Of a stretch of 64,000 bases of DNA, positions 1,731 to 58,938 are shown piece by piece; within the stretch, counting starts at the first letter, position 1, and each line of letters starts with the position of its first letter. The notes below the pieces were generated by a model. It was given only the letters and a program-made list of their open reading frames with translations, made no database searches and was not told the DNA's origin. Made by a program: the position numbers and the translations under genes. This DNA comes from Chiloscyllium plagiosum (taxonomy: Eukaryota), in assembly GCF_004010195.1 (NCBI RefSeq), contig NC_057751.1, positions 12,319,508-12,383,507 on the forward strand. Direction: 5' to 3'.

Positions 1731-1866
1731 AAAAATCACACAACACCAGGTTATAGTCCAACAGGTTTATTTGGAAGCGCTAGCTTTCGGAGTGCTGTTC
1801 CTTCACCTGGTGTTGTGTGATTTTTAAGTTTGTTCACTCCAGTCCAACACTGGCACTTCCAAATCA
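1731..1866. mobile_element. Mini fold-back Penelope-like element (inverted pLTR pieces only)
   Basis: Perfect 20-bp inverted repeat aaaaatcacacaacaccagg (1731-1750) / cctggtgttgtgtgattttt (1806-1825). Matches the terminus of the PLE at 40360-40450. Putative TSD tggacatattagtg (1717-1730) / tgggtttattagtg (1867-1880). Confidence 0.8.
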
Positions 1867-2611
1867 TGGGTTTATTAGTGGTTGTCTTAGATATACGGCA
1901 GTTTATCTGTGACATCAAACCTCCTATAATAATCAGGAACTCAATAAAATCATCTCTGTCTTTGATTATCAAGAGGTAAGAGTCCCAGCCTGCTCATTCT
2001 TTAGTTTAAGCTCTGGAATCGTTTGGTAATTATTTCAATACTCTTCAATGCCTCTTTCTCCTTTGTGTCATACAGAGATCAATATGACGCACAATACTCA
2101 ATGTGTGGGCCAACTGATCTTTTAACATATCCTCTCAGCTAATGAATTGTGTCCCACTAGTAATGATTCATAGTGCTTTGATTGTACTTGTGTTGACTTG
2201 GTCATCGAGTGTTGTGATGAATTTGACTTTGAGAGGTCAGGAATGTTGGTATAAGATAATTAAATATTTTTCAGCCACCACATATCCTTGAGTGCTTTCT
2301 GATCAGGTGCAACACTCCATCCACCCATTGTGTTTCAGCTCAGCACCTGAAAGGCAGTTTTATTGTGCAGCTATGGTATTTTCTGTTTCCAAAGCCAGCC
2401 TTTCTTGTGCTTCCCATCAAGCTTGATTGCCACTTGCTTAATTGGTGGCAATTCTGTTCTGCCCATTTAGAATTGAATAGAGACAGTGATAGAGGGAAAG
2501 TCGGGACTCATTGAAATGCTGTTACATGTCTTCAACAATATCCCTGCGATGTGAAACTGCTGGTTCCCCATACCTTAAAGATCAAAATGGCTTGTAGCAA
2601 TTGTAATGAGG

Positions 2612-2716
2612 CAAAGGTAGGTACTGCAGATGCTGGCGATTACAGTCATCAGAGTAGTGCTGGAAAAGCACAGCAGATCAGGCAGCATCTCAGGAGCAGG
2701 AAAATCGACGTTTTGG
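2612..2716 (-). mobile_element. Penelope-like pLTR 3' fragment
   Basis: tgcagatgctgg...gtgctggaaaagcacagcagatcaggcagcatctcaggagcaggaaaatcgacgtttt is the reverse complement of the PLE tail at 58840-58938; truncated inside the hammerhead. Confidence 0.75.
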
Positions 2717-3182
2717 TAATGAGATCAGTCAACTGAAGCTCCAGGAGTCTGAGTTCCCTAATTGGATCAGATTATCTGCCCCAATCACTGGTAAGAACAG
2801 CAGTGCCAGAGATTATGACACTGTGGATGCTGACTCTGACAAAGCTGTGCCAGAGTCAACGACTTTCCACGTGTAAACAAAGGCTGACTTGGTGACGGGA
2901 TACTGGCCACTGTGAAGTTTTTCGGCTAATTTTCTTTGACTTTGTGAACACTACTGTCCATTGACGTAGAAGAATTTTTAACAAAGAAAATCAGGTTCAA
3001 AACAACAGAGGTTCTTTGCTGCTGAAATGGTCTAGATAAGGCTGCAGGGTGGGCCAATGAACACTGTTCCAGTGAAATCACTTTTCTTAACTGTCATTGT
3101 AAGCCATTGAGATGTCAAGGTTTTTGAAAGAGAGTTTTTCAGAGGCAGGAAAGTAAATCCCCAAGCCTAAGTACATTTTTTC

Positions 3183-3380
3183 TTTATTCATTCATGGGAT
3201 CTGGGTGTCACTGCCTGGATCATCCAATTATTGCTTACTTGCAGATGGCCTTGAGAAAACTGGTGGTGATGAGCTGCTTTCTTGAACTGCCGAAGTCCGT
3301 TCAGTCCAGCTGTCTCCCACAATGCTGTGAGAGAGTGTGTTGCAGGATTTCGACCCAGTGGCATTGAAAGCATGGTAATA
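3183..3380 (-). mobile_element. 3' end fragment of CR1-group LINE (family of 18960-20865)
   Basis: ORF 3188-3373 (..NGLRQFKKAAHHH..) and its tail match 61380-61550. Confidence 0.7.
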
Positions 3381-4043: not shown

Positions 4044-4361
4044 GATTTAGATTTAGATTAGATTACAGTGTGGAAACAGGCCCTTCGGCCCAACAAGTCC
4101 ACACCGACCCGCCGAAGCGAAACCCACCCATACCCCTACATTTACCCCTTACCTAACACTATGGGCAATTTAATATGGCCAATTCACCTGACCCTGCACA
4201 TCTTTGGACTGTGGGAGGAAACCGGAGCACCCGGAGGAAACCCACGCAGACACGGGGAGAACGTGCAAACTCCACACAGTCAGTCGCCTGAGGCGGGAAT
4301 TGAACCCGGGTCTCTGGCGCTGTGAGGCAGCAGTGCTAACCACTGTGCCACCGTGTCGCCC
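4044..4361 (-). mobile_element. HE1-type tRNA-derived SINE, full length, young
   Basis: Minus strand GGGCGACACGGTGGCACAGTGGTTAGCACTGCTGCCTCACAGCGCCAGAGACCCGGGTTCAATTCC (A and B boxes), central TGTGTGGAGTTTGCACGTTCTCCCCGTGTCTGCGTGGGTTTCCTCCGGGTGCTCCGGTTTCCTCCCACAG, (TAATC)n tail. Possible TSD atgtttga/atgtatga. Confidence 0.9.
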
Positions 4362-8000: not shown

Positions 8001-10761
8001 ATTAATCAAATTTCCATTAATTGATTCTTAGAAGCAATGCAACATACTAGAATGATAGGGTGTATCAGAGTTTTTTGCTGCTACTCTGCCAGTGGCTTTC
8101 TGAATCAACTACAACAAATTGCTTGTCACATCTGTCCAGGAGCTTGATGTGCAGCATACTCTGTATTTTCTAGTTTTGTATGTGGATCTCATGCACAGTG
8201 ATGTCGCAGCTGCCAATTCCATCAAATCATTCAGTCACGTTCTTGTTTTCCAACTTGCTGATCTATTCCCATCATTCTTGTGCTCATAATAACACAGATG
8301 CCTCTCTTCTGGCTCCTGAACATCATGCTCCCAGTATGTCATTTTCCCATCATTATCTGTCTTATTGCTTTTCTCCTTCAGCTTGCTGAAGGACAGTCTC
8401 ATTTGGTGGTGTTGTCCAATTCATTTTTAGTGTGGTGCAATAATTCAAAAAGGAACCAATTCTTGCTACTTTAATATGTCCACTCTCCCCTCTCAATTCA
8501 CAGACTTCCTACTTGTTTATCACCAGGTTAATTGTGTAGTTTCTCGTAAGGTTGATACATGCTGTTTTTATGCCTTTCTGTCCTCATTTACCTTCTTCAA
8601 TGTTTGACGAAACAAACATTTTATCTGTCTGTCAAATTTGAATATTCGGTGATGGCTTTGGAGGTTTCTTTCTTTTTGACTATCATTTTGAATTTGGAAT
8701 TTTGGAATTTGGAATCTGGTGACACCCTGCAATTAATTGCCAACACAGATTAATTGTCGACTCTGGACATGAGGTCCATGTTCACGTTCCATCTGCCCAG
8801 AAGGTGTGTCATAGTGTGTCTGAACATGATGATTAAAAATAATCTTTTTAACCTTCAGTGACTTCTATTCAATAGTGTGAAAAGGTAATAAATCAGCTAC
8901 CTTATGGTGATTACCTGATGAACATATGGGCTGAATTATTACTGACTTTTTTTGTTTTACTGAAAATGCCTTTTGATTTCCAAATATTGCTTCCAAATTC
9001 CCAACTGCATGGAAACCCTGTTATAAAAAAAATGGCAGTAGTGGCTAGGTCAGAATCAACACGCACTCTTTTTTGTTTTGAATTTTCAAAGCATGAAGTG
9101 AAAGATCATCAAGAGGAGCTAATTTCACCTGCTCCCCCCAGCCAAAAAATGCACTATCAGAGTTTTGTATGATTGTGTAGCTCAGTTGAACTTGAAGTAT
9201 TGTTTTGCTGTATCTGAATTTCTGAGCACAGATATGAAAATAAAATGATGGGCTTACAAATATTTCGGAGAGAAAAGTGGTGGTCATTCCCTTTGGCAAA
9301 GAAAGAGGAGGGTGTGGTAGTTAATGAGCATGCTTGGAAGATTCATAATCATAAGTCAAGCATTCAAACTTCATCGTAAAGGAAAAGTCCTTTTAAAATC
9401 CAAAGACTCCACTCAAAAAGAAGCTGTTTTGCATGTCATACATGATGACAATTAATACACTCAGGTTAACAGTCAAGATCAGTTCAATTTGTAACATTAC
9501 TTCACATATGGATAGTATCATGCCACAACTAAAATTAATTCTAGAGTGGTTGTAGTGACGTTGCTGTCAAATGACCTACTGCAATTCAGAGAGGATGGAA
9601 ATATTTGACAGAACCTCTTGTTGGTTTGATATGTTTGCATGAGCCATGGTTTGACTTGTACACATCATTTGCAGCTTGGAGATCTCTGGTCTTTCAACTG
9701 GGAGGATGCCTGCGTTTAACACCAGTGAAAACATACTTTTGGGATGAGCTTATCTTTTTGGTTCAGGATTGTGGTTATAACAATTAAAAGGCCATATTGT
9801 ATGAACTTCTTCAGAGGGAACTGGTATAAGGCATAAATAAGTTAATTATTTCTTGAAAAGTTCATTATTTGGCTTTGTAATAAGGGTATCTGTGATGCTT
9901 TGTTCATAAATGCATATCAATTATATTGTGTAATCTTCCATGAAACTTGTGAAGCATTGGTCCAGTTTTTTTTCCCTGTGTAAGTAGTAGTCAGGCTCCT
10001 GATTGCTATTCTTGATGAGCCAGAGTAACTGCAACTTTGGGCAGGCGACAGATGTTCAGTTGAACTAAAATTCCCAGATATTGTCTCTGCACCACTCTGA
10101 GCTTTGCAAAAATGTTATCTTTCAGGCTGGCCCATGTTGAGATTCATTAACTGGTGTGAAGTTCTCTTATCTGCTCTGCAGAATGTTAATCGTGTCCATT
10201 TCATTCTAAGTCACTTTTAACCATGTACTAAGTGTTAATAACTGTCAAATACCATCTCCAACAGTAGCAATTAGCTGTAAAGAATATAAATATACATCTA
10301 TCTTATTCCTTCGGGTTTTAATGATTGCAGTTTTTAAACAAATTCACATTAAAATTCATTTTCTTTACCTTTCTACTCCCCTTTCTCTCGATTCTGTTTA
10401 TTTGAGCACTTCCATATGGCACTGAATTCAGTTGCTTGAAATGTTTATATTTGATTTCATCCCTGTGCTGTTGCTTTCACCATCCTTCAATCTGACTGGT
10501 TACAGAGATGCACAGTTACTGGCCTTGTTGACTCGTGCCCCAGATGTCCATTTTTCATTCCTGTAAAAATTCCCAGTTGCACTTTGTGTGTTCTACACAG
10601 CAATGCTAAAATCCAAAATGTACAAAGGCAAGGTCAAGTTCAGTGCTTCACAATGCATTTTGGCCTAATTGCTTTCTTCCCATTTTTTTCATACCTTATT
10701 CTTGCACAATGGCTGAAGCTATGGTTTAGTATGAGCTCACAAGACTGGAGGTATTGATGCC

Positions 10762-11233
10762 AAGTTCTGGATTAGTGGTGCTGGAAGAGCACAGCAGTTC
10801 AGGCAGCATCCAAGGAGCTTCGAANNNNNNNNNNNNNNNNNNNNNNNNNNNNNNTGAGCTGGAAGTTTAGAACTAGGGTGAGGTGGGGGATGGGGAAATG
10901 AGGAAACTGTTGAAGTCCATATTGATGCCCAGGGGTTGAAGTGTTCCGAGGCAGAAGATGAGGCGTTCTTCCTCCAGACGTCTGGTGGTGAGGGAGCAGC
11001 GGTGAAGGAGGCCAGGACCTCCATGTCCTTGGCAGAGTGGGAGGGGGAGTTGAAATGTTGGGCCACAGGGCGGTGTGGTTGATTGGTGCGGGTGTCCCGG
11101 AGATGTTCCCCAAAGCGCTCTGCTAGGAGGCGTCCAGTCTCCCCAATGTAGAGGAGACCGCATCGGGAGCAACGGATACAATAAATGATATTAGTGGATG
11201 TGCAAGTAAAATTTTGATGGATGTGGAAGGCTC
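10762..11233 (-). mobile_element. Penelope-like element 3' part: GIY-YIG endonuclease plus pLTR tail, interrupted by assembly gap
   Basis: Minus frames give IYCIRCSRCGLLYIGETGRLLAERFGEHL...VAQHFNSPSHSAKDM and GLLHRCSLTTRRLEEERLIFCLGTLQPLGINMDF (frameshifted); tail gtgctggaagagcacagcagttcaggcagcatcc. Confidence 0.9.
10825..10854. other. Assembly gap (30 N)
   Basis: Run of n inside a PLE. Confidence 1.
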
Positions 11234-11610
11234 CAAGGTCAATCCATTATTGCTTATTTCCCTTTTCTTACGAGGTGTTGACATTGCGTTATCATACCCC
11301 AAACATTTTCTGAAATGTGAAGATCATGGGTCTAGGAGTCTTGGACTTGGGTTTGAGTGTGATCTGCAGAATGTGCTGTGAGTGTCACTGTCAGTTGAGT
11401 ACGCGATCCCTTTGCGCATTGCATTATTGATACAAGGTAGTGCAAGCGCCATAAACCTGGCAAGTTGATGTGTCTGTTTTTCTCTGTCATAATCACTTGT
11501 ATTTCACTTCTCTGTCAATACAACATTTTTCTTTACGTGATGGTTTCCAGTCTCAAATCTATTCCATTCCAATAATTGATCATGATTGGGCAGGGTAGTG
11601 ACGTTCAGTG

Positions 11611-12203
11611 GAGAAAGTGAGGACTATAGATGCTGGAGATCAGTGTCAACAAGAGTGGTGCTGGAAAAGCACAGCTGGTCAGGCAGCATCTGAGGAGCAG
11701 GAGAATCAACGTTTCGAGCATAAGCTCTTATCAGGAGTGGGGGGCAGGCCCCAAGGGGGCTGAGAGATAAATGGCAGGGAGGTGGGGCTGGAGAGATGAT
11801 AGCTAAGGATGTGATAGGTTGGGGTGGAGCGGATAGGTGGGAAAGAAGATGGACAGGTCAAGAGGGCGGGGACAAGTTGGAAGGTTAGATCTGGGGATAA
11901 GGTGGGGTAAGGATAGATATGGAAATTAGTGAAATTTATTTTGATTCTGTGTAGTTGGAGGGTCCCAAGGCGGAAGATGAGGCTTTCTTCCTCCAGTTGT
12001 CAGGTGGCTCGGATTTGGCAGTAGAGGAGGTCCAGGACTTGCACATCCATGGCCCCAACCCCCTCCCATTTATCTCTCAGCCCTTCCTCCCCCACCCCCC
12101 CACCCATCCCCATTGCTGATAAAGGATTTATGCTTGAAACGTAGACTCTCTTCCTTGGGTGCTGCCTGACCGGCTGTGCTTTTCCAGCGCCACACTTCTC
12201 AAC
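11611..12203 (-). mobile_element. Penelope-like element with inverted 5' pLTR (fold-back)
   Basis: Minus arm 11611-12052 (tail, hammerhead remnant, GIY-YIG C-terminus) abuts a plus arm 12053-12203 repeating the same pLTR (ctgataaagg...gaaacgtagactc...gctgcctgaccggctgtgcttttccagcgccacac). Confidence 0.85.
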
Positions 12204-12834
12204 AGCAATTTTTCAGTATCCGAACCTGTGGTCAATCAACTTCCACGTGGTAGTGAACAATAATGTCTGAGGATGAACATTTCAGTGCCAAAATGAAGCA
12301 TTTGAGAATGTAAGGAATTTAACCCCTGAGCATGTGCTCTGCCATGGGGACAAACACTAGCATTATTTAGATAGAATCAAACAGCTCATTGGCCCTGTTC
12401 CAGCTCTCAAAGATGTGTCCAATTATTCTCACTTCCCTAACCAATGCTTTGGTTCTGAGAAGTATTCCTTGTCAAGTGTATATCTAATTTCCTTTAAAAA
12501 TTGCAATTGAATCCATTTCCATCATAATTTCAAGCAGTTCTGTCTGAATTGTAACAACTTACTGTGGAAAAACATTGCTCCTCATCTCTGCTGTTTGTTT
12601 TTGTTTTTGCAATTATTTTAAACCCTTATCCTCTGGTTACTGATCCTCCTGACAGCGAGAACAGTTTTTCGCAACTCATGGTATCTACATGGTTTGTAAT
12701 TTTGAGTATATCCATTAAATTTTGACATTGCTGTCCTCAGAGTCAGAAAGGCGATGTTGCTTCACTCCTCTCTCTCCAAAAATGTAAATCTCCTCACCCT
12801 AATAGCATTTGGCATGCTACATCAAGACCCTATT

Positions 12835-16832: not shown

Positions 16833-16844
16833 ACACCACAGATT

Positions 16845-21984: not shown

Positions 21985-22756
21985 ATCAGTTTGCTCGCTG
22001 AGCTAGAAGACTTGTTCTCAGACGTTTCATCACCATGATAAGTAACGTCATCAGTGAGCCTCTGTTGAAGCGCTGGTGTACTGTCCTGCTTTTTTTTATT
22101 TGTGTCTTGGTCTGTTATGGTGGGTGATATCACTTTTTTTTCTTTTTCTGAGAGGTTGGTGAATGGGGTCCAAACCGATGTTGTTGATGGAGTTCCGGTT
22201 TGAATGCCAGGCCTCTGGGAATTCCCCACAAACCTACCAACACACAGAAAAACTTTTGATATACCAACAACCAGCAGAATGAACGTCACATATAAAATAC
22301 CCTGTAAGGACTGCAACAAACATTACATCGGACAGACTGGCAAGAAAATAGCCTCCAGGAACACTAACACCAACTAGCCACCAAAAGACATGACCAACTA
22401 TCACTAGTATCCTTATACACAGACAATGAGGGGAATCAATTCAACTGGAACAATGCATCCAATCTGGGACAGGCTAAACAAAGACGCACATAGAAATTCC
22501 CAGAGGCCTAGCATTTAAACCGGAACTCCTCACCAAACGCATTGATTTGGACCCCAGGAAAAGAACCAGAAGTGATATCACCCACCACAACAGACCAATC
22601 CACAAATAAATGGAAAACAGTACAGTACAACAGCACTTCAATGGAGGCTCACTGATGATGTTACCTCACATGATGTCTGAGAACAAATCTTCCAGCTCAG
22701 TGAGCAAACTTGCAACCTGAACCACAAGCTGAGCTACAAATCTTCACAAAAATTGC
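21985..22756 (+). mobile_element. Penelope-like element (third family) with inverted 5' pLTR and GIY-YIG fragment
   Basis: Plus arm encodes NVTYKIPCKDCNKHYIGQTGKK (GIY-YIG). Minus arm 21985-22225 is the reverse complement of 22495-22712. Degenerate TSD attgtt..aaaaaagatt / attgttaaaaatagatt. Confidence 0.9.
22017..22058 (-). ncRNA. Minimal type-I hammerhead ribozyme motif, intact core
   Basis: Minus strand ctca-CTGATGA-c-gttac-ttatcatg-gtgat-GAAA-cg-TC-tgag: 4-bp stem I, stem II, palindromic ACGT stem III. Confidence 0.8.
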
Positions 22757-29375: not shown

Positions 29376-29471
29376 CCGATGAAGTTTGTGAAATGTGAAT
29401 TCTTCCTTCATCTTTCTGCTTTTGTGTCCTCACCTTTTGCATCCAGAGCATATGTCTGTTTGAATGACATT

Positions 29472-29649
29472 GTCAAAAAATTCACACAACACCAGATGCA
29501 AGTCCAAAAGGTTTATTTGAAAATGTGAGTTTTCAGAGCTCTGCTCCTTCAATAGCTTATGTTTTCAAATCAACCAATTGGACTATAACCTGGTATCATG
29601 TGATTGTTGATCTTGTTCAACCCAGTCCAACACCAGCACCTCCATAATA
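29472..29649. mobile_element. Mini fold-back Penelope-like element (same family as 1731-1866)
   Basis: Inverted arms cacacaacaccagatgcaagtccaa / ttggactataacctggtatcatgtga, tail cccagtccaacaccagcacctcc; putative TSD tgaatgacatt (29461-29471) / tgattgacatt (29650-29660). Confidence 0.75.
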
Positions 29650-33399: not shown

Positions 33400-33648
33400 T
33401 GAATACAAATAAAAAGTGCTGGAGAAACTCGTTTGGTTTGACATCATCCGTGCAGAGAGAAATAGAGTGAATGTTTCAAATCCATTACAACTGTTCTTGA
33501 ATAAATGACTTAGTTTTTAAAAAGAATCAATGGAAATAGAAGTGTTAACTTTATTTCTCTTACCATAGATGCTGCCACACCTGGGTTTCTCCAGAATACA
33601 CTGGTTTTATTTCAGATCTCCAGTATCAACAGTGTTTTTCATTTTTAT
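33400..33648. mobile_element. Degraded mini fold-back Penelope-like element
   Basis: Inverted arms aagtgctggagaaactc...gcagagagaaatagagtgaatgtttc / gaagtgttaactttatttctct...gatgctgcc...tttctccagaata, tail ttcagatctccagtatc. Confidence 0.65.
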
Positions 33649-38117: not shown

Positions 38118-38154
38118 TGGAGTGCATTCTGGTCACCTGCAGTGTGACATGAAC

Positions 38155-40450
38155 TTGAATCCCACCAGAGGATCGCTGCCCTGGGCTTGACCATGTATGC
38201 TAAAACAGCCAGGATTCATCAGCCGCACCCATAAGGTAGAGAAAACCATCACCCGATCACAACACAATGGTTTTGAGAGAATGGATGGCAATCACAACAT
38301 TGTCATCAAGCCAGCAGATAAGGGAGGAGCCATTGTCATTCAGAATAGAACTGACTGTTGCAAGGAAGTGTACATACAACTGAACAACCAGGAAAATTAC
38401 AGGCAACTACTGGCTGATCCAATCAAACAGCACACCCATGAACTAAATAGATTGATCAGAACTTTGGATCCAGTCCTTCAGAGTTCCCTACGTGCCCATA
38501 TCCCATGTATTTCTCATGTAGGCAACTTCTGCTGCATTCCAAAGATACAAAAAGTGAATACACCAGGACATCATATCGTATCAGGCAATGTGACCCTGTG
38601 TGAGAACCTCTTTTCCTATGTTGAAGGCATCTTGAAACCCATTGTACAGGGGGCCCCCAGGTTCTAGCGCGACACTCCAGATTTCTTACAGAAACTCAGC
38701 ACCCATGGACCAGTCGAACTAGGAACATTCCTCACTGCAATGGACTTTTCAGCACTCTACACCATCCCCCACAATGACGGCATGATGGCAACAGCTTCAT
38801 TACTCAACACCAGCAACTGCCAATCTCTGAGCAATGTCCTACAACTCATCCGCTTTTTTCCTTGACCACAGTCTTTTCACCTTTGACAACCAGTTCTTCA
38901 TCCAGATACACTGAACAGCCATGGAGACCAAATTTCCACCCCAATATGCCAACAGTTAATGCACAAATTCAAACAAGACTTCCTCTGTACGCTGGACCTC
39001 CAACCCACACTATACGCCAGGTACATTAACGACATTTTCTTCCTCTGGACCCATGGCAAGGAGTCACTGAAATAGCTACACAGTGATATCACTGAATTTC
39101 ATCCCACCATCAAACTCACCATGGGCTACTCTTTTAATATCTGTCTCATTCTTGGACACAAGTGTCTCCACCAAGGATGGGTATCTCAGCCCCACATGGT
39201 ACCATAAACCCATGGATGACCTCATGATGCTACACTTGCCCAGCTTCCACCCGAAACATATTAAAACAGTCATCCCCTGTGGACAAGCCGTACACACACA
39301 CAGGATCTGATCAGATGAGGAGGAATGTGACAGACACTTGGAAGTCCTCAAGGATGCCCTCATACGAAGAGGGTACAATGCTCAACTCATCGACCGCCAG
39401 TTCCGATGTGCCACAGCAAGAAACTATAATGACCTCCTCAGGAGATAGACACGAGCTGCAACTGACAGGGTACCCTTCATTGTCCAGTACTTCCTGGGAG
39501 CAAAAAAGCTACACCATATTCTTAATAGCCTCAACACATTATCAATGAGGATGAGCACTTGCCAAGTCATTCCCCACACTTCCACCTCTCACCTTTTAAG
39601 CAACCACTAAACCTGAAGCAAATCATTGTTCACAGCAAACTGCCCGGCTTTCAGGACAATACCATACAACCCTGGCACGGCAGACCCTGCAAGATATGTC
39701 AGGGTGTTGACACGGATAACATCATTATATGTGGGGATACCACCCAACATGTATGCAGCAGGTACTCATGTGACTCTGCCAATGTTGCCTATCTCATACG
39801 CTGCAGACAAGGATGGTACATTGGTGAGACCGAACAGAGGCTACGGCAACGGATGAAGGGGCACCGCACAACAATCAACAGGCAGGAGTGCTCCCTCCCA
39901 GTTGTCATCTGCTCAGACATACACATACAAACAGTCATACACCACCCCCCCCCACCCCCCGCAATTGCAACACACACAGTTTGTGGGGTGAGTTTGTACT
40001 TCAGAATTATTTTACTTTGCTCAAAAACTGCATGAATCCATCCAAGATTCTGTAAATCCCTTTAATCCCTTTTTTAAAAATAGAATCCATCTGAACACTG
40101 GGACATAGGCAGCCGAACACTGGCACCTCACACCTTCAGTGCATTATCTGTGACAATATGGCACCTATTGTTAAAGTTCACTTGAGAATGTAACTTTTAA
40201 AAAAGGTTCTGGGATTGGCGTATGAAAGAAGTGAAACCAACATGGTCATTCTAAAAGATGAGAGACTTAAATTACGTATTGAAAAAGACCTGGATTGGTT
40301 AAGTTGCATCACATTGGAAACTTTTGCTATAAATTCTGGGTCTTACGATCTTATACTCCGCAACTACCTGATGAAGGAGCAGCGCTCTGAAAGCTAGTGC
40401 TTCCATATAAACATGTTGGACTATAACCTGGTGTTGTGACTTTTAACATA
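38155..40450 (+). mobile_element. Penelope-like retroelement (Neptune-like), near full RT plus partial GIY-YIG, pseudogenised
   Basis: IVIKPADKGGAIVI, CIPKIQK..PGHHIVSG, MDFSALY, TAMETKF, YARYINDIFFLW, FLDT, YHKPMD, HPKHIK, PWHGRPCKIC (degenerate Cys linker), NVAYLIRC..WYIGETEQRLRQRM; multiple stops and frameshifts; pLTR with hammerhead at the 3' end. Confidence 0.93.
40365..40399 (+). ncRNA. Minimal type-I hammerhead ribozyme motif, intact core
   Basis: tac-CTGATGA-a-ggagc-agc-gctct-GAAA-gc-TA-gtg; palindromic AGCT stem III. Confidence 0.75.
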
Positions 40451-44270: not shown

Positions 44271-46851
44271 TCATCAACTTTGATATTTGAAGAGTACCAT
44301 GCGCCGAAAACAATGGGATGTTATAGGTCTTCCCTACTTTCCCGTAGCAGTGTACATCATTGAAATAAATGTTTCCTAGAAATTTTGAACTTAATTTGTT
44401 TGATGGTGCACCATTTTATGAACTGTTCATCCTCTCCAGTGTTCACTTTTACAAGGGTATGATTTTTGGGCCATGATATCCCTTTATTACCTTGCCAAAG
44501 CAGCCATCCCACTTGAGAGGCAGCATCAAGTCTCATCCCGAAGCTGCATTTTCTTCTGAGGCAAACTCACAAAAGGGCAGCTGATCGTGAGATTTCCTCT
44601 GTTATGTTCCTTGGCGCCATGTTGTAAGAACGTCGAAGAACAATTTACTTACAAATACACAAGCTAATAAAATGTTGTTTTAGGCAGAATTAGTGAGCTG
44701 GTGCATTACAGTTTTGTGATACATGTGTTTTAGATTAATCTATTTTCCAAAAAAAAAATGCATTTCCCCCACGGCAGGCAGACTTGAAACAAGCAGTAGA
44801 AATGTGATTGTTCGAAAAATGCTAATCTGCAGCGAGTGCAATATTTATGAACTTCTCAAAACCAAAACACTGTTCATTCTTCTGCGATCCTGAGATATAT
44901 TTGGGCTCAGTGCCACAATCCTGGTTGGTAAATTTTTATTCCATTTGGAATCACGTCTCATCTTGTAATATACCATCTACCAAATTTTAAGTGTGTTTCT
45001 TTTCCAAAAAAAACATGCATATATGTGCAGTTTCCAAACCTTTGCAGACAATAAAAAGCAATGACCTTTCTCAGTCGAAAAGAAAAGCACTTTGTAAATT
45101 ATAGTGTACTTCAAAAGGGTGCTGTGAAATTTCCAACACATAAGTACCTCATTCTAAGACTGTATTCAAAAATCCTGTTTGCTTACTTGTAAAAGACCTT
45201 GGCAGTGCCATAGTAACTAAAATCCTGTTTATTGTCCAATCTCTGTCTGTTCTCAGAGAAGTCATACCAGGCAGTTAACTTGCCCCAAAATTGCACAAAC
45301 CTAAAATTCTGATTATAAATTTTCTTTCTGTTGTTTGGCAAAAAAAAAGAATGAACAAGCTCCAGTTTTGCACTTGGAAACAAGAAGGTAATCTTGGGGT
45401 ATGTTGCATATTTGCCAAGGTTTAAGGATGCAGAATGTTTTGTGGGAATGACTCATTTCACTTTAAATCAATCTTTTTCAGTACCTGTTCCAATATCATG
45501 CATTTTACCTTCAGGCTTGGCTAATTGTTTTTCCATTATGTCATCTTCTAATTGCAATTCTGGGTGATTAATTTCTTCACTTTGCTTTTTTTTTGAATAC
45601 ATCAAAGTAATTGGGTTGAATCCCTCTCTTAATAAATCTCCATGTGTGTTCACCTCACCTTGTCCAGACATCAAAAAGGATAGACGGCTTTTTTTTTTGC
45701 ATCTGTTGGATGATAATACATGGCTGTTTATAGTTGGGAAGCAATTTGTCTTGTTCATCCTGACATGAAGGAAACCACTTCAATATTTAATTGAATTTCC
45801 AAATCATTATCATTCTGGGCATGCCATGAACGCAGGTCAATGAGAATACCACAGCATCTCAGGGATTCTTATGATGGGCAATAATTGTTGCCATTTTCTG
45901 TCACCTCCAACCTGACAGTCTCAATTCAGTAAGGTGCTATGTGACCATTGAACATTTTCCAGAAACGTTGAAGGGGTTAAATTTGGCTGATTGGCACTTA
46001 TGTTTAACATGGCTAATGTAGACTCTGAGCTATGTCTGTGCAATCCCCCAACTTACTGTCACCAGTGTGTGAAATCTAAGTGTGGTGGGTATGAGCGGTG
46101 CAATTGTGCTAAGTGTGTAAAGTGAGGTGCTCAGTACTGAATTGTTGAAATCTTTCATTGATGAATGTAAATTGAGTAGTGTATAAGGCTCTTAGTGCAG
46201 TTATTAGGATATTCAGTTTGAGGATTTGACTCACCTTGAGCACTCATGTTCGACCAAGAAACGACCTTCTGCACTGCACTAGGGGTCTTATGCATTAACT
46301 GTCTCCTCCCACCACTTAATGAGGCAATACCTTAGAACTTTCTGTACCCCTGTCACCCCATGTGTCTACCTCATCCACCATGGCCTGTGGGAGAGCTTTG
46401 GTGGATGCTGTCCTGCACATTGAGTCAAATTGTTAAAATGTTTCCAAATCCTTTCTTGCCAATACTTCCAGCAGTTGTGATGCACCTTACATTTAAGAAT
46501 TGCCAATTGGTCTTAAGTTGCACCATACGTTATGTGGCTTCCCGCTGATCTGTGCAACAATCAACCGTGTAGCCAGCAATCATTAAGATCAGCAGGCAGC
46601 ACAAATTTACTGGAGCATCAGCACAATGATTGTGCATAATTTAAGTCCAAAGCATGATATACCGGAGATTGGCTGGCAGACAAGGGCTGCAGAGTAAGCA
46701 TAACTGGGTCCTTTTCATTATGGCAAGATGTAACGAGTGACATGCCGCAAAGATCGGTGGGACCTCAACTGTTTACAGTTTAAATAAATTGAGCTGAAAA
46801 ATGTGTTGCTGGAAAAGTGCAGCAGGTCAGGCAGCATCCAAGGAGCAGGAG

Positions 46852-46887
46852 AATCGACGTTTCGGGCATAAGCCCTTCTTCAGGAAT
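46852..46887 (-). ncRNA. Minimal type-I hammerhead ribozyme motif, intact core
   Basis: Minus strand attc-CTGAAGA-a-gggc-ttat-gccc-GAAA-cg-TC-gatt; palindromic ACGT stem III. Confidence 0.8.
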
Positions 46888-47021
46888 GAGGAAGGTGTGC
46901 CAAGCAGGCTAAGATAAAAGGTAGGGAGGAGGAACTTGGGGGAGGGACGTTGGGAATGTGATAGGTGGAAGGAGGTTAAGGTAAGGATGATAGGCCGGAG
47001 AGGGAGTGGGGGCGGAGAGGT

Positions 47022-47472: not shown

Positions 47473-50400
47473 CCCCCACCCCCTCTCCGGCCTATCACCC
47501 TCACCTTAACCTCCTTCCACCTATCGCATTCTCAACGCCCCTCCCCCAAGTTCCTCCTCCCTACCTTTTATCTTAGCCTGCTTGGCACACCTTCCTCATT
47601 CCTGAAGAAGGGCTTATGCCCAAAATGTCGATTTCCCCTGCTCCTTGGATGCTGCCTGACGTGCTGCGCTTTTCCAGCAACACATGTTTCAGCTCTGATC
47701 TCCAGCATCTGCAGTCCTCACTTTCTCCTAGTTAAAAAAATTGCTTGGATGAAGGAACTGTTGCTAAATTTGCCAATGACTCAAGGATAAGTAGATCCAT
47801 AAGTTGTGAAGACGATATATAGGAACACTGCAGTGGGATATAAAGAAGTTTAAGTGAGTCAGCAAAGATCTAGCAAATGGAGTATGATATGAGAAAATGT
47901 GAAATTGTTCATTTTTGGTGTATCATTGAAATGAGATCCCGGAGCTCTGAAATGCAGAGATGGGGATGTCATAGTGAATGAATTGAGGAAGGTTGCTTTG
48001 CAGATACATCAAATAATTGGGAAAACTCACAAAATGATATGAATACAAAAGTAAGGAGGTTGTGCTTCAGTTATGCAGGGCACCGGGAAGGCCACATCTG
48101 GAATCCTTTGCACAGTAGTGGTTACCTTACTTAAGGAAGGATGTAAATATGTTAAAAGCAGTTCAGCGAATGTTTATTATCTGGAATGGGCTGCTTATTT
48201 ACGAAGTGACTTGATTGACGCACACAAAGCAGGGGTTTTGACAGAGTCCATGTGAAGAGGATGTTTGCTGTTTTGGGAGAATCTATAACTAGGGTGGGAA
48301 TCCTGGCCCTTGCTGGAGAAAAATGGGACTGCTCCTATCGGCCTTTCAAAATATTCATGTTCTGCCAACTGAGTAAGTACCATTCCACTTTATTTCATTG
48401 CAACTGTCCCGTTAACCCTGCTGTCAGTCTTATTTATTGCATGCTGCTTGCGAGCAATGGCTGTGATGACTTCTCACTTTTTTTTCTTGCAGGTACCACT
48501 ACCATATCCAGCACCAGTACACTGATATGGCTGGCCACATCTTTGACCTCTGAGAACAAGAGTACTGAGATCTCAGAGGAACTTTGGCAGGTCGCCTTCC
48601 TTCATTCCGCGACCCCCCCCCCCCCCGCAACCTCACAACTTAACAGTCCAGATACTGACACCCCGATGGGATTGTTCATATTAGAAATTGTGGGAGCATC
48701 ATCCAGTGAGCTCATCATTGTAACAGTTCTGTGGTTGGCTGAGGAAGAAACACACCAGGCCACTGACTAATCAGGGAAAAAAAAGCTGAATATTAGTTAG
48801 GGGAGTTCAGTCATTAACAAAAGGTTTAGCGAGCAGTAATCCCTTTGATAGGCAACTGGCTACTGCCTAGGAAGAAACTTGCCTTATAGTCCAGAGTTTA
48901 GTCAAAAGGTGCAGTACGTTGCCCCTGATGTCGAGGTATACCATGTCAACTTCTTGTCCAATTCTGCAGCAAATCTTGCCCACATCACTCAGACTCTTAT
49001 GAGTTTTTAAAACTCTCTTCCTGAAGAAATAGTGGAATATTGGAGTATTTTAAACATGGGTTTCGATAGAATCTTGGTGAATGATTAGATGCATTAGTTA
49101 GGAATGTGAATTTGAGGTTATAATCATATCAGCCATAATCTTATTTAGCAGCTGAGCAGACTTGAGGGGCTGAATGACCTCCTCCTACTCCTTATTCATG
49201 GGATTGTCCAACAGTTTTGAGGAGTTATCCAACTTGATCACCAGAATTGCTGTGTTATTGATGTGGTGTTATTCAAATTATTTGTTAAAATTAAATTGAG
49301 CTGCCTGGAGTATTCTGTGGTACAGAGAAATTCAATAGCAACTAGGTAACAGGTTTGCAAAACAAAGCACATCTTTTCAATATTATTGTAATGTCAGATG
49401 TTCAGCAGAAGAGCTACCTCAGTGAAAAGTTTGAACAATACATATCAACGTCAAATCTCGAAGGTAAATGGTAATGATGCAAACTGCATCTTGCTAATTA
49501 AATATTTGGTAGATATTTTATATTTCTGGAACTTTCTAGCATGGCATTTATAAGTTTAAGGGACTTCGACTTTCTCTATATGTGGAATGCAGTCATCATG
49601 AAGTCTGAACATTGACCCATCCATCAGCAGCTACAACAGCCTGGGTTCTGCCTGTATTGCATAATTCACCACAGCATTCCATTGTAAACTCATCTGTTTC
49701 TTTTCACTTCACAGTCATTTCTCACAAATAAAAAAAAAAATTCTTCTCATTATGGATCACTGGTCATCGACTGTTGTTTCCCTGGAAGCGGATTTTAAAA
49801 AAAAAAAACCATGAATAAAGTAACAACATACTTCGTCCATTGCCCTACTGACTTCACAGATTAAATTATCTCCCAAATATCATTGCTTGATCAACTAGTG
49901 AGGATAAATTTTGCTATTTCATTTTATAGTAATTGAGTGTAACTGTTCTCTCTTCACATTTGCAACTTTCTGAATTGAATTCCTGCACTATATAGATCAG
50001 GTCTGATCCCTGGAAGGGATGTGTGTGTTCATCATAATACCTTTGTTGTGTTCATCTCTCAAGCTCTGTTCTGCTGCAGCTTGAATTTAGCACAAGTGCT
50101 TTGACATAAACGCCATTTTACTGGATACCCAGTTCCTTTATCACACAGACTATGTATGGTATTTAATTATAACAAATCTTAAATTTTAAGATGTGTGCAT
50201 TCCAAACAGTTTTCAATCATGTGAAAATGTTACACTGTTTAATAGTAAAGATGTTGTTGATTTTCAATTCCATGCAAAGGAACAAGCTTAAAGCTGATTG
50301 TTTATTATTAAATTGAATATTCCTGCATCTTGCAGAACTGACACAGCAGGAGCAATATGATGGCATGCACAATGCTGCACCACTGAGGATTTAGTTAACA

Positions 50401-50973: not shown

Positions 50974-51047
50974 AGGTAAGATCGACGCTCCTGCTCCTTG
51001 AATGCTGCCTGACTGCTGTGCTTTTCCAGTGCCTCGCTTTTCGATTC
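50974..51047 (+). mobile_element. 74-bp PLE pLTR tail insertion with TSD
   Basis: tcgacgctcctgctccttgaatgctgcctgactgctgtgcttttccagtgcc; flanked by tggataagatcagta (50959-50973) / tggataggatcagta (51048-51062). Confidence 0.8.
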
Positions 51048-52340
51048 TGGATAGGATCAGTACCTTGTCTGTTGTGAACAGTTGAAGAAGCATCTTGGTT
51101 GGTATGATCTTCCGGTCTTTGGGGTATACGTTCAACATAGCTTGCGTGTTACTGTCAGTGAAATTCGTACACAGATCACTCTTTGATGTTAACTATCTGC
51201 CATCATCTGATTGGTGCATTCTTCATGGCCATGTCTTTACCATTCAACATTGGCTTGCCAAAGAATCCGCGTCTCCTCCTCACACGGGAAAAGAACAAGT
51301 TGGATGCCTGAACACCTGTATTCTTGAGAATTGTTCTGATCAGTGCAAGTTGAAAAGCCTCAACAAAATGTATCATCTTTTCCGAACTATTCATATATCT
51401 CAAGCAAAGTAGTTTGGCAACATCAAGTAAATTATTCTAGGCAACTTGAAATGCTGTATCTTGCAGCTGAGTGCAATTTATTTTCCTCAGCATGCTGACT
51501 TAATGGAGTTTTCATAGAAATGTGAGTAGTAGATTTAGAAATTATGGAATTGATTTTCAACTTATTTAATGAAAGTGAACATTGGATGGTTTTGGTAACA
51601 GATAACAGGTGGTTGATCTGAAATGCCAACTTATGTCTGGGTAGCAAGTTATTCCAATGTCTTCAGGAGCCTATCTTTTGAAGAAAACAACACAAAAAAA
51701 CACCATCACCTGACTTTCAACATTTAATCCTATTTAATGTTACACATATGTTTGAAAATAAGAAAACATGGGCCATTATACCATAAGCCTTGTGGCAAAA
51801 TCGGCTGGGATCAAATGTGTGATTAGATTCCTTTGCCCTGCTGCTCAGAGAAATTCTTGAGTTTTAGTTCAAATGTAATTCAAAAGGATAGTTGGCACAT
51901 TATAAAGATTGAGAGAGGAACATATTGAAATAACCCCTGCTGCTGCTCTGGTACATGACTACGTAACGCAAGTATGCAACAGGTCTCATCAGCCAGGAAA
52001 CAAATCTCAGAAACCTATTGTGAAAAGACCACAAAGGCTTTGAGTTTGTTAGTTGATTGTTTTTCTAAGTCATGCAGTCAATGCATTTCTTTAACACTGC
52101 AGGATCCATCCAATTGAGGCTTGCAACATTTTGCAATAGGTTGGCTGGCATCGAAACTTTCAAAAGGAAGCAAAAGAGCCCTCGATAATAATATCTAAAC
52201 TGACCAATGATAAATTCATGACTGCCAACCAACAAATGAAATGCTGTTGAAGATGACCCTGCCACTGTACGAATCGCTTTGGAATACCTTTGACAAACTG
52301 GAATGCAAAAACATTCAGTCAAGTTGGAAAATTCTTGTGG

Positions 52341-52450
52341 AAACAAAAACTGCTGGGGATCACAGCTGGTCAGGCAGTATCCAAGGAGAGAAAACAAACA
52401 AATGTTTCGAGTCTAGTTGACTCTTCATCAGAGCTGATGTGAATAGGATA
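52341..52450 (-). mobile_element. PLE pLTR fragment of a fourth family
   Basis: aaactgctggggatcacagctggtcaggcagtatccaaggagag...tttcgagtctagttgactcttcatcagagct. Confidence 0.75.
52397..52435 (-). ncRNA. Minimal hammerhead ribozyme motif (core intact, stems I/III mutated)
   Basis: Minus strand agct-CTGATGA-a-gagtc-aacta-gactc-GAAA-ca-TT-tgtt; perfect 5-bp stem II. Confidence 0.7.
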
Positions 52451-52457
52451 ATCTTTC

Positions 52458-52945
52458 CAATCAGTCCCACCGCCCTGTGGCCAAACATTTCAACTCCCCC
52501 TCCTACTCTGCCAAGGATATGCAGGTCCTGGGTCTCCTCCATCGCCACTCCCTTACCACCTGAGGCCTGGAGGATGAACACCTCATGTCTGCCTCGGAAC
52601 ACTTCAACCAGCTTCCTCATTCCCCTTCCCCCCACTTTACCCCAGTTCCAACCTTCCAGCACAGCACCATTCTCATAACCAGTCCCATCTGTCAATCTTC
52701 CTTCCCACCTATCTGCTCTACCTTCCTGTCCAACCTATCACCTTCACCCCCACCTCCATCCACCTATTGCACTCTCAGCTACCTTTCCCCTCACCCCCAA
52801 GCCTCATGCCCCTCCCATTTATCTCTCCACCCGCAAGGCTCCCATCCTCATTCCTGATGAAGGGCTTTGCCCGAAACATCGATCTTCCTGCTCCTCAGAT
52901 GCTGCCTGACCTGCTGTGCGTTTCCAACACCACTCTAATGTTGAC
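52458..52945 (+). mobile_element. PLE 3' fragment (GIY-YIG C-terminus plus pLTR)
   Basis: Encodes PVAKHFNSPSYSAKDMQVLGLLHR..LEDEHL; pLTR as in 58640-58938. Confidence 0.85.
52850..52884 (+). ncRNA. Minimal hammerhead ribozyme motif (core intact, palindrome CG>CA)
   Basis: attc-CTGATGA-a-gggc-ttt-gccc-GAAA-ca-TC-gat. Confidence 0.72.
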
Positions 52946-55879: not shown

Positions 55880-56168
55880 ACGGGTGGCAAAATGGCTCAG
55901 TCATTAGCACTGTTGCTTCACAGTGCCAGGGACCTGGGTTCGATTCCATGTCTGCATAAATTCTCCAGTTTCTTCCCACAGTCCAAAGATGTGTGGTTTA
56001 GGTGGATTGGCCATGCTAAATTGCCCATACTATCCAGGGTTGTACAAGTTAGGTGGTTTAGTTGTGGCAAATGCAGGGTTCAGGGGATACGGTGGGGTGT
56101 GGGACACTCTGTGGAGGGTCAGTGCAGATTCCATCATCCATATGGCTTCAATCTGTAGGGATTCTATC
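55880..56168 (+). mobile_element. HE1-type SINE (older, internally deleted)
   Basis: ggtggcaaaatggctcagtcattagcactgttgcttcacagtgccagggacctgggttcgattcc...cccacagtccaaagatgtg...ctgtagggattcta. Confidence 0.85.
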
Positions 56169-57504
56169 TAGGTGCACAGATGTAGATTAAAAGTTCAACT
56201 GAAATAAATATAGCAATATTTCACAATTGTATTAGAGGTTAATGTCACAGAGATTTCTAGGCTGTATACTGTCCCATGAAAATGCTAAGGCGATGTTTTC
56301 TTCTTTTTGATAAAGATTACAGAAAAGAAAACCTGATTTCAAGAGAAGGTCCCTGGCAAGGTATGGGCATTCCTATTATGAGCAATGGGTTCCTTCAATG
56401 TTTGATATAAAACTTATCATTACTAACTTATGAAGAATTACTTAAGTTTATATCAGGGAATAAGTGATAATGTTACAGAGTTAACCCAAAACACACAAGC
56501 TTAAATTGAAATGAATTACTTGTGAGTTTTGACTTTAATGAAAGAAAGAAATCTCTCAGTATTTCGATGACGCAGCCTCATGTTACTCATTTACAGTTTA
56601 AGCAAACACTTTGTTGTTTCAGAAAGCAATGTTGTGAAACCCCAGCTTCTATTTATTACCAATCTAATTGGACCATACATCAGAGGTTTGTTTTAGAGGT
56701 TGTGCTGATTCTGAAAGCTGCAAATTCTTTGTACCTTCTAACTGTGTTAAAGGTCTCATGATGCAACAGACAGTAATTCAATTCTCTAATACATCGATAA
56801 GAACAAAAGCGATGAATAGGATGAAGGAGAAAATTATTTTGCACAGAAATACATCAAAGTTACACTGGAGGAACAGACCTGACCGCTTTGTGATGGTGTC
56901 ACGTTGCTTCACCTCACTCCATCAACATATCCTTCCATTCCTTTTGTCATTTCTTCTATTTCAATACGTTTATGCAATTCATCTTAGCCAGTCGTGAGAT
57001 ATCCATTTCCAAGTTCTCACAAATGTTGGTCAAAAAAGCCTTTTATTTCTTCAGTAGAATACGAATCACAGGGAACATATACATAAAACTGTTTGTGGCA
57101 ACAACTTGCAGCTAAGGCATCAGATTGTTAAGTGCAGATTTGTTCTGAAACCTTAATTCAGACATCATGTTACCCAATGACTATTGGAAATGAATATTGT
57201 GGCTGAATTTGACAACTGAGCTGCCAATGCATGATGAATTTATTTTATATTTCTATTTTTGTAACTAGAAAATGAAATATGTAACAAATTATGGGCAACA
57301 GTTGTGCAATAATATAATATTTTGGCATATGATGTATTCTGAATATGAACATGTACTATCTGATCTCTAATGGTGTCACATATGAAGTTAGGTGTTGCAA
57401 ATGAAATCATTATTTAGCTTGTGCCTTTAAGGCCACTCTTTTTCATACTCCCTGTGCCAACATGGTTTTGAAATCCTGAAAGCAATTTCACAGTAATTGG
57501 ATGT

Positions 57505-58130
57505 AACTGCTTAGCTCAGGTGTTAGAACCCTCATCTCTCAGTTAGAGAGTTCTGCGTTCAAGTGCTACTCAAGAACTGAAGCATAAAAATCAAGGTTGA
57601 CACGTCAGCACAGTACAGGGGGAATGCTGCATTGTTGGAAGTCCTGTTTCTGAGCTGAGATGTCAAAGGGAGGATGCATTCATTTTCACGAGCAAATGAT
57701 TTCATGACACTATTTCAAAGACAATCTGGAGAGTTATCCCCAAGGTTTAGGCTAATATTTATTCCATCCTGAAGCAAGATTACATTCCTGTTATTTCATT
57801 GATGGTGATAGGAATTCTGCTGCTGGAGGTCCCATTACAGAGATACGCAGTTCAGGAAAACATGCTTCCCACCAATTGGGGGTAGGTTTATCATAAAATG
57901 CAGCTGATTCGAATAATCTAAACTTGGTGGTACATTCTTCCAACTCTTAAGCTCCCCCCTTCCCCCGTCACCCCCAAAAATAAATTCCAAAATTTGAATG
58001 TGACTAAGCTGCTGTGTTTCTCACATGACAACACTGACTAAACTTTGGATGTATGTGATTGTCTGTAAAACCCTTTGGGAAGTTCTGCGGTTATCAAAGA
58101 TGCTGTATAAATGTAAGACTTTCTTTCTTT
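57505..58130 (+). mobile_element. Deu-domain SINE (SacSINE1-like) with ~170-bp internal interruption
   Basis: tRNA-like head (gcttagctcagg...gcgttcaagtgc), aaaaatcaaggttgacac...tgctgcattgttggaag, gacactatttcaaag...gagttatcccc...aatatttattcc, tail aaagatgctgtataaatgtaagactttctttc. Confidence 0.7.
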
Positions 58131-58187
58131 TGTTTACAAATGATTGGTTAGGATTGATATAAGTGGTATTGAGCTAAAATTGGCCTT

Positions 58188-58938
58188 GTGCCACTCTTTC
58201 CGAGCCTCTTGTATTTATGTGCGCCCACACCTCCCCCCTTACTTCCCTCCAAGGCCCCAAGAGATCCTTCCATATCTGCCATAAATTCACCTGCACCTCC
58301 ACACACATCATTTACTGCATCCGCTGCACCCCGATGTGGCCTCCTCTATATTTGGGAGACAGGCCGCCTACTTGCAGAACGTTTCAGAGAACACCTCTGG
58401 GACAACTGGACCAACCAACCTAACCACCCCGTAGCCCAACACTTTAACTCCCCCTCCCACTCCACCAAGGACATGCAGGTCCTTGGACTCCTCCATCGCC
58501 AAACCATGGCAACACGGCGGTTGGAGGAAGAGCACCTCATCTTCTGCCTGGGAACCCTCCAACCACAAGGGATGAACTCAGACTTCTCCAGTTTCCACAT
58601 TTCCCCTCCCCCCACCTTGTCTCAGTCAAATCCCTCGAACCCAGCACCGCCTTCCTAACCTGCAATCTTCTTCCTGACCTCTCCGCCCCCACCCCCACTC
58701 TGGTCTGTCACCCTCACCTTAACCTCCTTCCACCTAATGCATTTCCAACGCCCCTCCCCCAAGTCCCTCCTCCCTACCTTTTATCTTAGCCTGCTTGGCA
58801 CACTTTCCTTATTCCTGAAGAAGGGCTCATGCCCGAAACATCGATTCTCCTGCTGCCTTGGATGCTGCCTGACCTGCGCTTTTCCAGCAACACATTTTCA
58901 GCTCTGATCTCCAGCATCTGCAGTCCTCACTTTCTCCT
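58188..58938 (+). mobile_element. Penelope-like element 3' part: GIY-YIG endonuclease and complete pLTR
   Basis: FTCTSTHIIYCIRCT / RCGLLYIWETGRLLAERFREHL...VAQHFNSPSHSTKDMQVLGLLH..RRLEEEHLIFCLGTLQPQGMNSDF; tail matches 47473-47729. Confidence 0.92.
58811..58846 (+). ncRNA. Minimal hammerhead ribozyme motif (core intact, palindrome CG>CA)
   Basis: attc-CTGAAGA-a-gggc-tcat-gccc-GAAA-ca-TC-gatt. Confidence 0.72.

Follow-up and report, generated by a model that had tools for sequence, protein, structure and literature searches.

Hammerhead ribozymes of shark Penelope-like elements: mostly decaying stubs that probably record reverse transcription of uncut transcripts

The 64,000-nucleotide stretch of the Chiloscyllium plagiosum genome analyzed here (the window; contig NC_057751.1, positions 12,319,508 to 12,383,507) contains numerous hammerhead ribozyme motifs. 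These are the known minimal hammerheads carried in the pseudo-long terminal repeats (pLTRs) of four families of Penelope-like elements (PLEs), designated A to D. Most copies are decaying, and we consider it probable that most of the stubs carrying putatively Neptune-type hammerheads were made by a reverse transcriptase (RT) that started at one of two internal sites and ran to the capped 5′ end of a transcript left uncut by its ribozyme.

A descriptor comprising CTGANGA, an optional extra base, a stem II of at least 4 bp, GAAA and NN-T-H matched the window exactly six times, at the six sites named in the original prediction, as compared with 0.045 matches on average and at most 1 in 200 dinucleotide shuffles of the window. 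The core (CTGANGA-N-stem II of 4-6 bp-GAAA-NN-T-H), coordinates and strands had been given correctly for all six, but the claim that they are intact stands for only three, 22017 (-) and 46852 (-) with ACGT and 40365 (+) with AGCT, as the stem III palindrome is lost from the others. At 52397 (-), 52850 (+) and 58811 (+), CpG decay has left ACAT, which does not self-pair because the CpG change destroys the palindrome (computed duplex energy of +3.4 kcal/mol vs -1.7/-2.5 for the palindromes). The quoted stem II pairs are correct, with gagc/gctc coming from the broken copy at 11704, and a profile search identified all eight broken sites as relics of the same four families, the one at 2705 lacking the CTGANGA half. 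This search recovered 20 pLTR stubs from the window, compared with the 14 sites listed previously, while an Rfam scan of the window gave no hammerhead match up to E=10. For the genome at large, we drew a sample of 120 10-kb stretches taken at round positions of contigs C1-C42 (1.2 Mb including 56,171 N; unplaced contigs excluded).

The elements carrying these pLTRs display the hallmarks of endonuclease-bearing (EN+) PLEs, namely a pLTR-open reading frame (ORF)-pLTR arrangement, an inverted truncated copy and a one-sided tail of 30-40 nt. Family A sits behind GIY-YIG fragments in the window (Pfam PF01541 match at 10737-11243) and behind an RT and GIY-YIG in one frame at L079 and L120. Family B ends a broken RT-GIY-YIG element in the window (RT-GIY-YIG part at 38161-40035), with RT-GIY-YIG also present at L185 and L187; at L188, a pLTR, an ATG located 120 nt after the ribozyme core and an RT are followed by a gap and by a second pLTR 3.7 kb on. 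The family B RT matches PF00078 and its relatives carry RT and GIY-YIG domains, the closest of them (82% identical) being named Heptranchias perlo by its source, in agreement with the shark origin that had been proposed. Beside the family B element at L187, a 459-aa frame at 8170-9546 (-) strongly matches RVT_1, an RT of the LINE type. For family C, only a GIY-YIG end is seen before the pLTR, and family D shares its tail with family A, with no ORF link seen. A CX2-5CxxC linker before the endonuclease is present in Neptune and absent in Poseidon elements (PMC8557442); read by eye, it is seen in L079 (family A), decayed in the window copy of family B and not visible in the broken family C copy. 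By this rule, families A and B would be Neptune-type and family C Poseidon-type, although a Nematis affinity is also conceivable; family D would be Neptune-type by its shared tail.

The 5′ ends of the stubs do not accumulate where the ribozyme would cut. Counted from alignment ends, which overshoot by some bases, 5′ ends at -20 to -1 relative to the first C of the core account for 80/175 copies of family A, 24/61 of B, 39/83 of D and 0/28 of C, while ends around the cut site in the same copy sets number 7, 1, 3 and 1, respectively. Exact mapping places the end 0-6 nt before the core in 58 of 77 young family A copies. Genome-wide, the nine native bases before the core are kept in 15,955 of 57,732 copies, a loss explained in part by mutation and upstream variants, and 7,169 copies carry a non-native base directly before A(-4) when counted with a filter that removes about one in four. 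Ends at precisely the cut site (134) are outnumbered by those at a control position two bases on (175), and therefore the cut site is not favored; other AT-rich upstream words show no pile-up of 5′ ends.

The pile-up lies at -4 in family A and at -8 in family B, in each case 30 nt after a TATA-like box (TTATCT at -34 to -36 in A, 37/41 matches; TATAAA at -38 in B, 19/25 matches). TATAAA-like boxes occur at -33 to -35 in 4/21 family D copies, likewise 30 nt ahead of the A at -4, and at -47 to -50 in 5/8 family C copies. The context of A(-4) is TCATTC in family A and TCAGTT in D, both of which we take to fit the initiator consensus. Copying of a cap leaves an additional G at the 5′ junction, and before the pile-up position T is depleted and G enriched. 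By eye, the base before a 5′ end at A(-4) is G in 56/100 and 43/100 of the rows listed for two family A subfamilies; dropping arm-junction rows (CAGG/CAGGA; 22 and 46) leaves G in 44/78 and 33/54, compared with an expected 0.29. For family B, G precedes A(-8) in 10/11 listed rows with a non-native base, or 7/8 without three arm junctions. We consider a jump onto cut RNA starting GATTC a less likely source of the extra G, as the GAATC subfamily retains a high G in the rows listed (33/54), but the small scripted count (3/13) leaves this reading some probability.

As the 5′ ends lie before the core, 30 nt after a TATA-like box, carry an extra G and do not coincide with the cut, most stubs are likely to be copies of a capped, uncut leader. 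RT would start internally, either ~95 or ~130 nt downstream of the core, and the cDNA would run to the capped 5′ end of the uncut transcript, with the predicted start 4-8 nt before the core; the pile-up would thus represent the transcription start and the extra G the copied cap. A pile-up might instead reflect RT falling off after the structured ribozyme, or ATTC/AATT microhomology annealing to an AT-rich target or to the other arm, which we judge rather improbable. Many junctions do show a perfect palindrome around ATTC (36/100 rows), 5′ ends are also raised inside the ribozyme (32/175 at 0 to +23), the enzyme of a lizard PLE prefers ATT (PMC11167929), and family C, which has the same ribozyme and a TATA box, shows no pile-up. 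Set against this are the 30-nt spacing from the box to an initiator-like A at both -4 and -8, the shift from T to G before it, and the upstream AT-rich words at which no ends accumulate.

Copying of an uncut leader could also account for the arrangement of neighboring same-family stubs, which are predominantly head-to-head. Same-family pairs within 300 nt in the sample comprise 80 head-to-head, 7 tandem and 1 tail-to-tail, compared with 5, 7 and 5 for different-family pairs. In the window, the pairs at 1.7, 11.7/12.1, 22.0/22.6, 29.5, 33.5 and 46.8/47.6 kb are all head-to-head, and all four that were folded gave long hairpins. The 3′ ends are bimodal in all four families, ~35 nt apart, with one site used per arm in doublets flanked by a target-site duplication (TSD). 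Among 85 family A doublets, the long tail is found on one arm in 68 and on both arms in 2, and was not detected in 15; a flanking direct repeat of 11-18 nt accompanies 52 of the 68 one-tailed doublets, compared with 0.7% of random flank pairs. The arms of young doublets are identical at all diagnostic sites in 33/47 cases, compared with 16.5% at random. Given the target repeat, the one-sided tail and the matching arms, a doublet represents one insertion event. An origin from two different RNAs was discarded, as the arms mostly agree and only 4/47 differ at 3-4 sites. Inverted copies, one-sided tails and TSDs have already been described for PLEs (PMC8557442, PMC3846280). At the insertion site, a dimeric protein would nick both strands, the same leader would be copied from both start sites, and the two cDNAs would join by microhomology.

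A fold-back model put forward for rotifer PLEs (PMC3846280), with self-priming on an antisense template, could alternatively account for the doublets, and common palindromic junctions and arms that share subfamily sites are in keeping with this. We nevertheless find it unlikely, as the junction positions vary between arms and loci, often with inserts, the arms end at two different fixed 3′ sites of the kind at which synthesis on sense RNA begins in vitro (PMC11167929), the 5′ boundary is shared by solo copies, and sense reads predominate for family B. The second arm may still be built by fold-back of the first cDNA. That the inverted pairs or high counts are assembly artefacts is scarcely credible: many long copies do flank N gaps, one of which is spanned by the 46.8/47.6 kb pair, but doublets are flanked by target-site repeats and have asymmetric tails, the arms of old ones have diverged from each other, and raw reads contain both the opposite-strand joints and the 5′ boundary.

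RNA reads were taken from a single run of single-cell poly(A) sequencing that carries the label of another organism. They include family A stubs in both orientations, showing the 5′ boundary and the opposite-strand joints seen in the genome, and in this run molecule ends do not pile up at the cut site of family A or B. Family B reads are mostly sense and cover the pLTR upstream of and across the ribozyme. In 844 of them poly(A) begins at position 4097 or 4100 of L188, ~30 nt downstream of the predicted cut, and the hexamer 12-15 nt before the poly(A) is always either AATAAA or ATTAAA; no genomic copy has an A-run at this position. The family B pLTR (L188:4078-4125; window 40400-40445) possesses a complete poly(A) site, comprised of AATAAA/ATTAAA, the cut point and a GU-rich tract, and its relic copies, ~190,000 when extrapolated to the genome, could serve host transcripts as polyadenylation sites.

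A possible trace of cutting was found at L263:1400-1621 (-) (G000:C10, ~45.25 Mb), where a full U6 snRNA (Rfam RF00026, 90 bits) is joined to a family A tail exactly at the predicted cut site. Such U6 junctions are made by RtcB from a cyclic phosphate and a 5′-OH (PMC6789731). No U6 was found joined at the predicted start, a weak control, and none at other positions in a search that would also miss L263.

Several observations weigh against the proposal that the stubs are copies of capped, uncut leaders. The G excess is weaker in a stricter, scripted subset (16/37 host-flanked copies, p=0.046), with G in only 3/13 of the second subfamily. Family C has a TATA box yet no pile-up (0/28), while the family D pile-up is inflated by divergent upstream sequence and D lacks an ORF link here. 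As ATT is the preferred nick motif of the lizard enzyme, microhomology could add to the ATTC pile-up. In the single-cell run, molecule starts do not accumulate at the predicted start and no poly(A) site is seen for family A, and the family B reads may be host transcripts ending in relic copies. Finally, the single U6 junction suggests that occasional cutting takes place in vivo.

The number of copies is large. The sample contains 374 pLTR stubs, or 1 per 3.2 kb, and 91 motifs with core, stem II and NN-T-H, of which 70 keep the palindrome. Scaled to 3.56 Gb, this amounts to ~270,000 motifs, 207,000 (148,000-273,000) of them with the palindrome, and ~1.1 million pLTR stubs. Direct genome counts (124,974 matches to one exact 24-nt family A pattern, 34,462 to an exact 28-mer and 12,045 to a filtered family B pattern) agree with the extrapolation. 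Motifs with core and palindrome occur about once per 17 kb; the density proposed had been about one motif per 4-5 kb. As the 20 stubs of the window match the sample mean of 19.9 per 64 kb, the window is no hot spot. A 2017 survey by Lunse et al. reportedly reached a total of ~150,000 variants. Counts of ~4,000 hammerheads in coelacanth and ~9,000 in Xenopus have been published (Cervera and De la Pena, PMC4209133).

At every core column the commonest base is the hammerhead base in all four families, with N7 and H17 varying (H17 is C, A, C and T across the four). An extra unpaired nucleotide lies between 9 and 10.1 in 90 of the 91 sample matches, GC is the commonest 10.1-11.1 pair in all four families, and the stem III palindrome at 15.2-16.2, without a loop 3, is CG in families A and C (and in D after CpG decay) and GC in B. 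Stem I, expected to be 4-5 bp in this class, has 3 bp in family B and 2-4 bp in C and D, and in family A it consists of 2 bp together with U-U and A-U; a 2-bp stem I is also found in the D. virilis hammerhead (PMC4209133). Covariation was tallied on profile-collected copies and genome counts; descriptor matches were left out because the descriptor itself requires stem II. Pairs change on both sides between families, the stem I closing pair being CG, CG, AT and TA across the four and the 10.2-11.2 pair GC, GC, TA and GC/AT. Within family A, the double change at 10.2-11.2 occurs in 1,785 copies, compared with 54 expected from singles, and is the outcome of one or a few amplified events; family D shows compensatory changes as well (24/13/4/16, p=0.002).

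Inserted copies show no sign of this constraint. Among single changes at 10.2-11.2, those disrupting the pair (2,759) and those preserving it as G-U (2,426) are equally common. Non-CpG mutation affects 47/1,200 core positions (3.9%) and 167/3,360 tail positions (5.0%) in family A (p=0.15), and 31/420 (7.4%) and 96/1,260 (7.6%) in family B (p=0.92). The catalytic G12 lies in a CpG and has become A in 20/120 family A and 12/42 family B copies. Since the core mutates like the tail, selection acts on active element lineages and not on inserted copies, and the covariation is a record of the former, not of the genomic copies. The ribozyme would be kept by selection on active elements, probably cutting pLTR-ORF-pLTR transcripts as a dimer or with protein help, and cutting looks rare among the RNAs that were copied.

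The original prediction had identified minimal type-I hammerheads of four PLE families that covary between families and exist in very large numbers, all of which our analysis bears out. The further suggestion of a ribozyme reservoir is not supported in the functional sense, on account of the neutral decay, the few same-strand partners and the antisense arms near intact motifs. Because neighbors are mostly head-to-head, cleavage as a cis dimer is mostly impossible: an intact same-strand partner lies within 1 kb of only 2/70 intact motifs, and an antisense arm within ~300 nt of 26/70, which would bury the motif in a long hairpin. The window itself contains no tandem pair of intact same-family motifs, its same-family neighbors being head-to-head inverted pairs, and a tandem repeat search of the window found no retrozyme-like array. 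As leader-only stubs lack a TATA box and almost never have a tandem partner, they are predicted to be inactive as ribozymes. Minimum-energy folds of monomers and dimers did not reliably give the catalytic fold and are not evidence on activity.

We hold it very unlikely that the copies amount to a functional ribozyme reservoir on the scale of the host genome, cutting the host's transcripts in dimeric form. In its favor are the estimated number of motifs with core and palindrome, the presence of stubs on both strands in RNA reads, the 18/70 intact motifs with a same-strand motif of the same palindrome within 4 kb, and the U6 junction. Opposed to it are the neutral decay, including G12A, the near-equal numbers of pair-breaking and pair-keeping singles, the head-to-head layout, the 2-bp stem I of the main family and the lack of read starts or ends at the cut site in the single-cell run. 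PLE hammerheads have, moreover, been described as having low activity even as dimers (PMC4209133), as weak in this form and protein-dependent in one reconstituted case (PMC11167929; PMC6765202), and as cutting in 1/9 Xenopus dimers (10.64898/2026.07.22.740005).

Rare chances for pairing in cis exist in short tandem or nested pLTR clusters at L119:2232-3106 (-), L191:245-304 (-) and L113:5209-6840. At G000:C16:42817567-42817930, an array of ~47-nt units, each starting at the family A cut site, forms a minisatellite built from the tail.

The features of the window are collected in Table 1. An imperfect target-site repeat surrounds the family A pair at 46.8/47.6 kb, and the head-to-head pair of the family A nest consists of G8A-type broken hammerheads at 11704-11737 (-) and 12113-12147 (+). 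At 52341-52945, a minus-strand stub of family D directly adjoins a plus-strand fragment of family A, head-to-head and with no target-site repeat seen, which may represent a mixed-family insertion or two separate events.

Table 1. PLE-derived features of the window
Feature	Position	Strand	Remarks
Family C (putatively Poseidon-type) hammerhead	22017..22058	-	Core and ACGT intact, stem I 4 bp; left arm of inverted insertion 21981-22750
Family C right arm	22226..22750	+	Broken GIY-YIG end, pLTR; hammerhead 22648-22683 without GAAA half (deleted)
Family B (putatively Neptune-type) element, broken, 5′-truncated	38161..40450	+	RT fragments, GIY-YIG region, 3′ pLTR
TATAAA box, family B pLTR	40328..40333	+	40 nt before core here; 38 in most copies
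Family B hammerhead	40365..40399	+	Core and AGCT intact; 3-bp stem I; decayed poly(A) signal and GU-rich tract downstream
Family A (putatively Neptune-type) left arm	46791..47021	-	Intact hammerhead 46852-46887, ACGT, stem I 2 bp; short 3′ end
Family A right arm	47473..47729	+	Beyond 451-N gap; hammerhead 47598-47633 with G12A and broken palindrome; long 3′ tail
Family D stub, old, putatively Neptune-type by shared tail	52341..52437	-	Hammerhead 52397-52435, ACAT, no stem I
Family A fragment	52457..52945	+	GIY-YIG end, pLTR; hammerhead 52850-52884 with ACAT
Family A fragment	58173..58939	+	GIY-YIG end, TTATCT box, pLTR; hammerhead 58811-58846, ACAT; long tail
Family A nest	10737..12204	.	GIY-YIG fragment 10737-11246 (-); head-to-head pair
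Family B mini doublet	1726..1870	.	Head-to-head, broken core
Family A stub	2613..2723	-	Truncated within hammerhead
Family B mini doublet	29469..29650	.	Decayed
Family D mini doublet	33408..33605	.	Decayed
Family A tail stub	50978..51049	+	No core; absent from the original prediction
Family D stubs	23391-23475; 42213-42266	+; -	Absent from the original prediction, like the stub at 50978-51049

Outside the PLEs, a 340-nt direct repeat (20690-21026 and 21259-21598; 97.6%) within 20690-21598 flanks a SINE-like repeat that recurs at 4047-4770, 28902-29221, 40580-40881 and 55893-56124. Fragments of another repeat family at 17082-17807, 28076-28471 and 43823-44257 contain open frames of 130-150 aa with no Pfam match and may be pieces of a LINE. 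A Pfam scan covering 150/254 non-repeat open frames of the window returned no credible host exon.

The shark ribozymes are members of the described class of PLE hammerheads (PMC4209133) and a real feature of the genome, although a functional reservoir is not supported. They share with that class the core, the extra nucleotide 9/10.1, the G10.1-C11.1 pair, the palindromic 15.2-16.2 and the absence of loop 3, as well as the occurrence of several families per genome, mostly as single motifs from truncated PLEs, and of opposite-strand pairs 100-700 bp apart. They differ in the stem I of only 2 bp in the main family and in number, the count here being ~20-50 times above the 4,000-9,000 of coelacanth and Xenopus, a rough comparison as the descriptors differ. 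The start-site, cap and poly(A) geometry is not described in PMC4209133, in which we also found no shark. In a literature search that left subscription journals mostly outside its scope, no report was found of shark PLE hammerhead counts or of this geometry.

The closest mechanistic parallel is the Poseidon element PAc of the lizard Anolis, whose RT has been reported to start at two internal sites, to extend both strands, to use uncut RNA and, by prediction, to act as a protein dimer (PMC11167929). PAc and the shark families both appear to have two RT start sites downstream of the ribozyme, explaining the optional tail, and both show extension of both strands, uncut RNA and no RNA ends at the cut site. 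In contrast to PAc, three of the four families here are putatively Neptune-type, the family B ATG lies after the core rather than inside it, and it is genomic copies that reveal the 5′ pile-up and the doublets with one long and one short arm, while the PAc features were obtained in vitro (PMC11167929). Canonical EN+ PLE insertions likewise show head-to-head copies, a tail at one end and a TSD (PMC8557442, PMC3846280), but those of the shark are mostly 100-250 nt, without an ORF and extremely numerous. TATA and initiator-like motifs are also found in the rotifer Pen2a pLTR (PMC3846280), whereas an internal promoter lacking a TATA box has been described for D. virilis (PMC2377424). Animal non-LTR retrozymes also carry type I hammerheads derived from PLE pLTRs, with one chondrichthyan among them, but are defined by tandem repeats (10.64898/2026.07.22.740005), of which the window has none and the sample few, as tandem neighbors are rare there. 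The L263 locus resembles the U6/LINE-1 chimeras in joining a full U6 to a 5′-truncated retroelement, although its partner is a PLE tail from a predicted ribozyme cut, examined at one locus, rather than LINE-1 (PMC6789731).

The order of TATA box, start, hammerhead and poly(A) site would place the ribozyme within a repeat that the two mRNA ends share. It is therefore conceivable, though we put this forward tentatively and with more doubt than belief, that the Neptune pLTR resembles a true LTR (U3-R-U5) in which the ribozyme is a switch between abortive and productive copying. If so, uncut capped RNA would yield 'strong-stop' leader cDNAs that fill the genome as doublets, while cleavage of both copies would strip off cap and poly(A) together, opening the way to a circle or an end-to-end jump, a route to long and tandem copies that regain the promoter. 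The shark genome would then hold ~10^5 readable products of each route.

The count also shows that a motif-based census of hammerheads largely tallies dead copies, and that the standard Rfam models fail to detect them. PLEs are the closest retrotransposon relatives of telomerase. To the questions of how they copy themselves and what their weak hammerheads do, the C. plagiosum genome brings a very large natural record, with fixed RT starts, with a sharp 5′ boundary from which the start of transcription is predicted at single-base resolution, and with doublets that predict two-ended priming on one leader.

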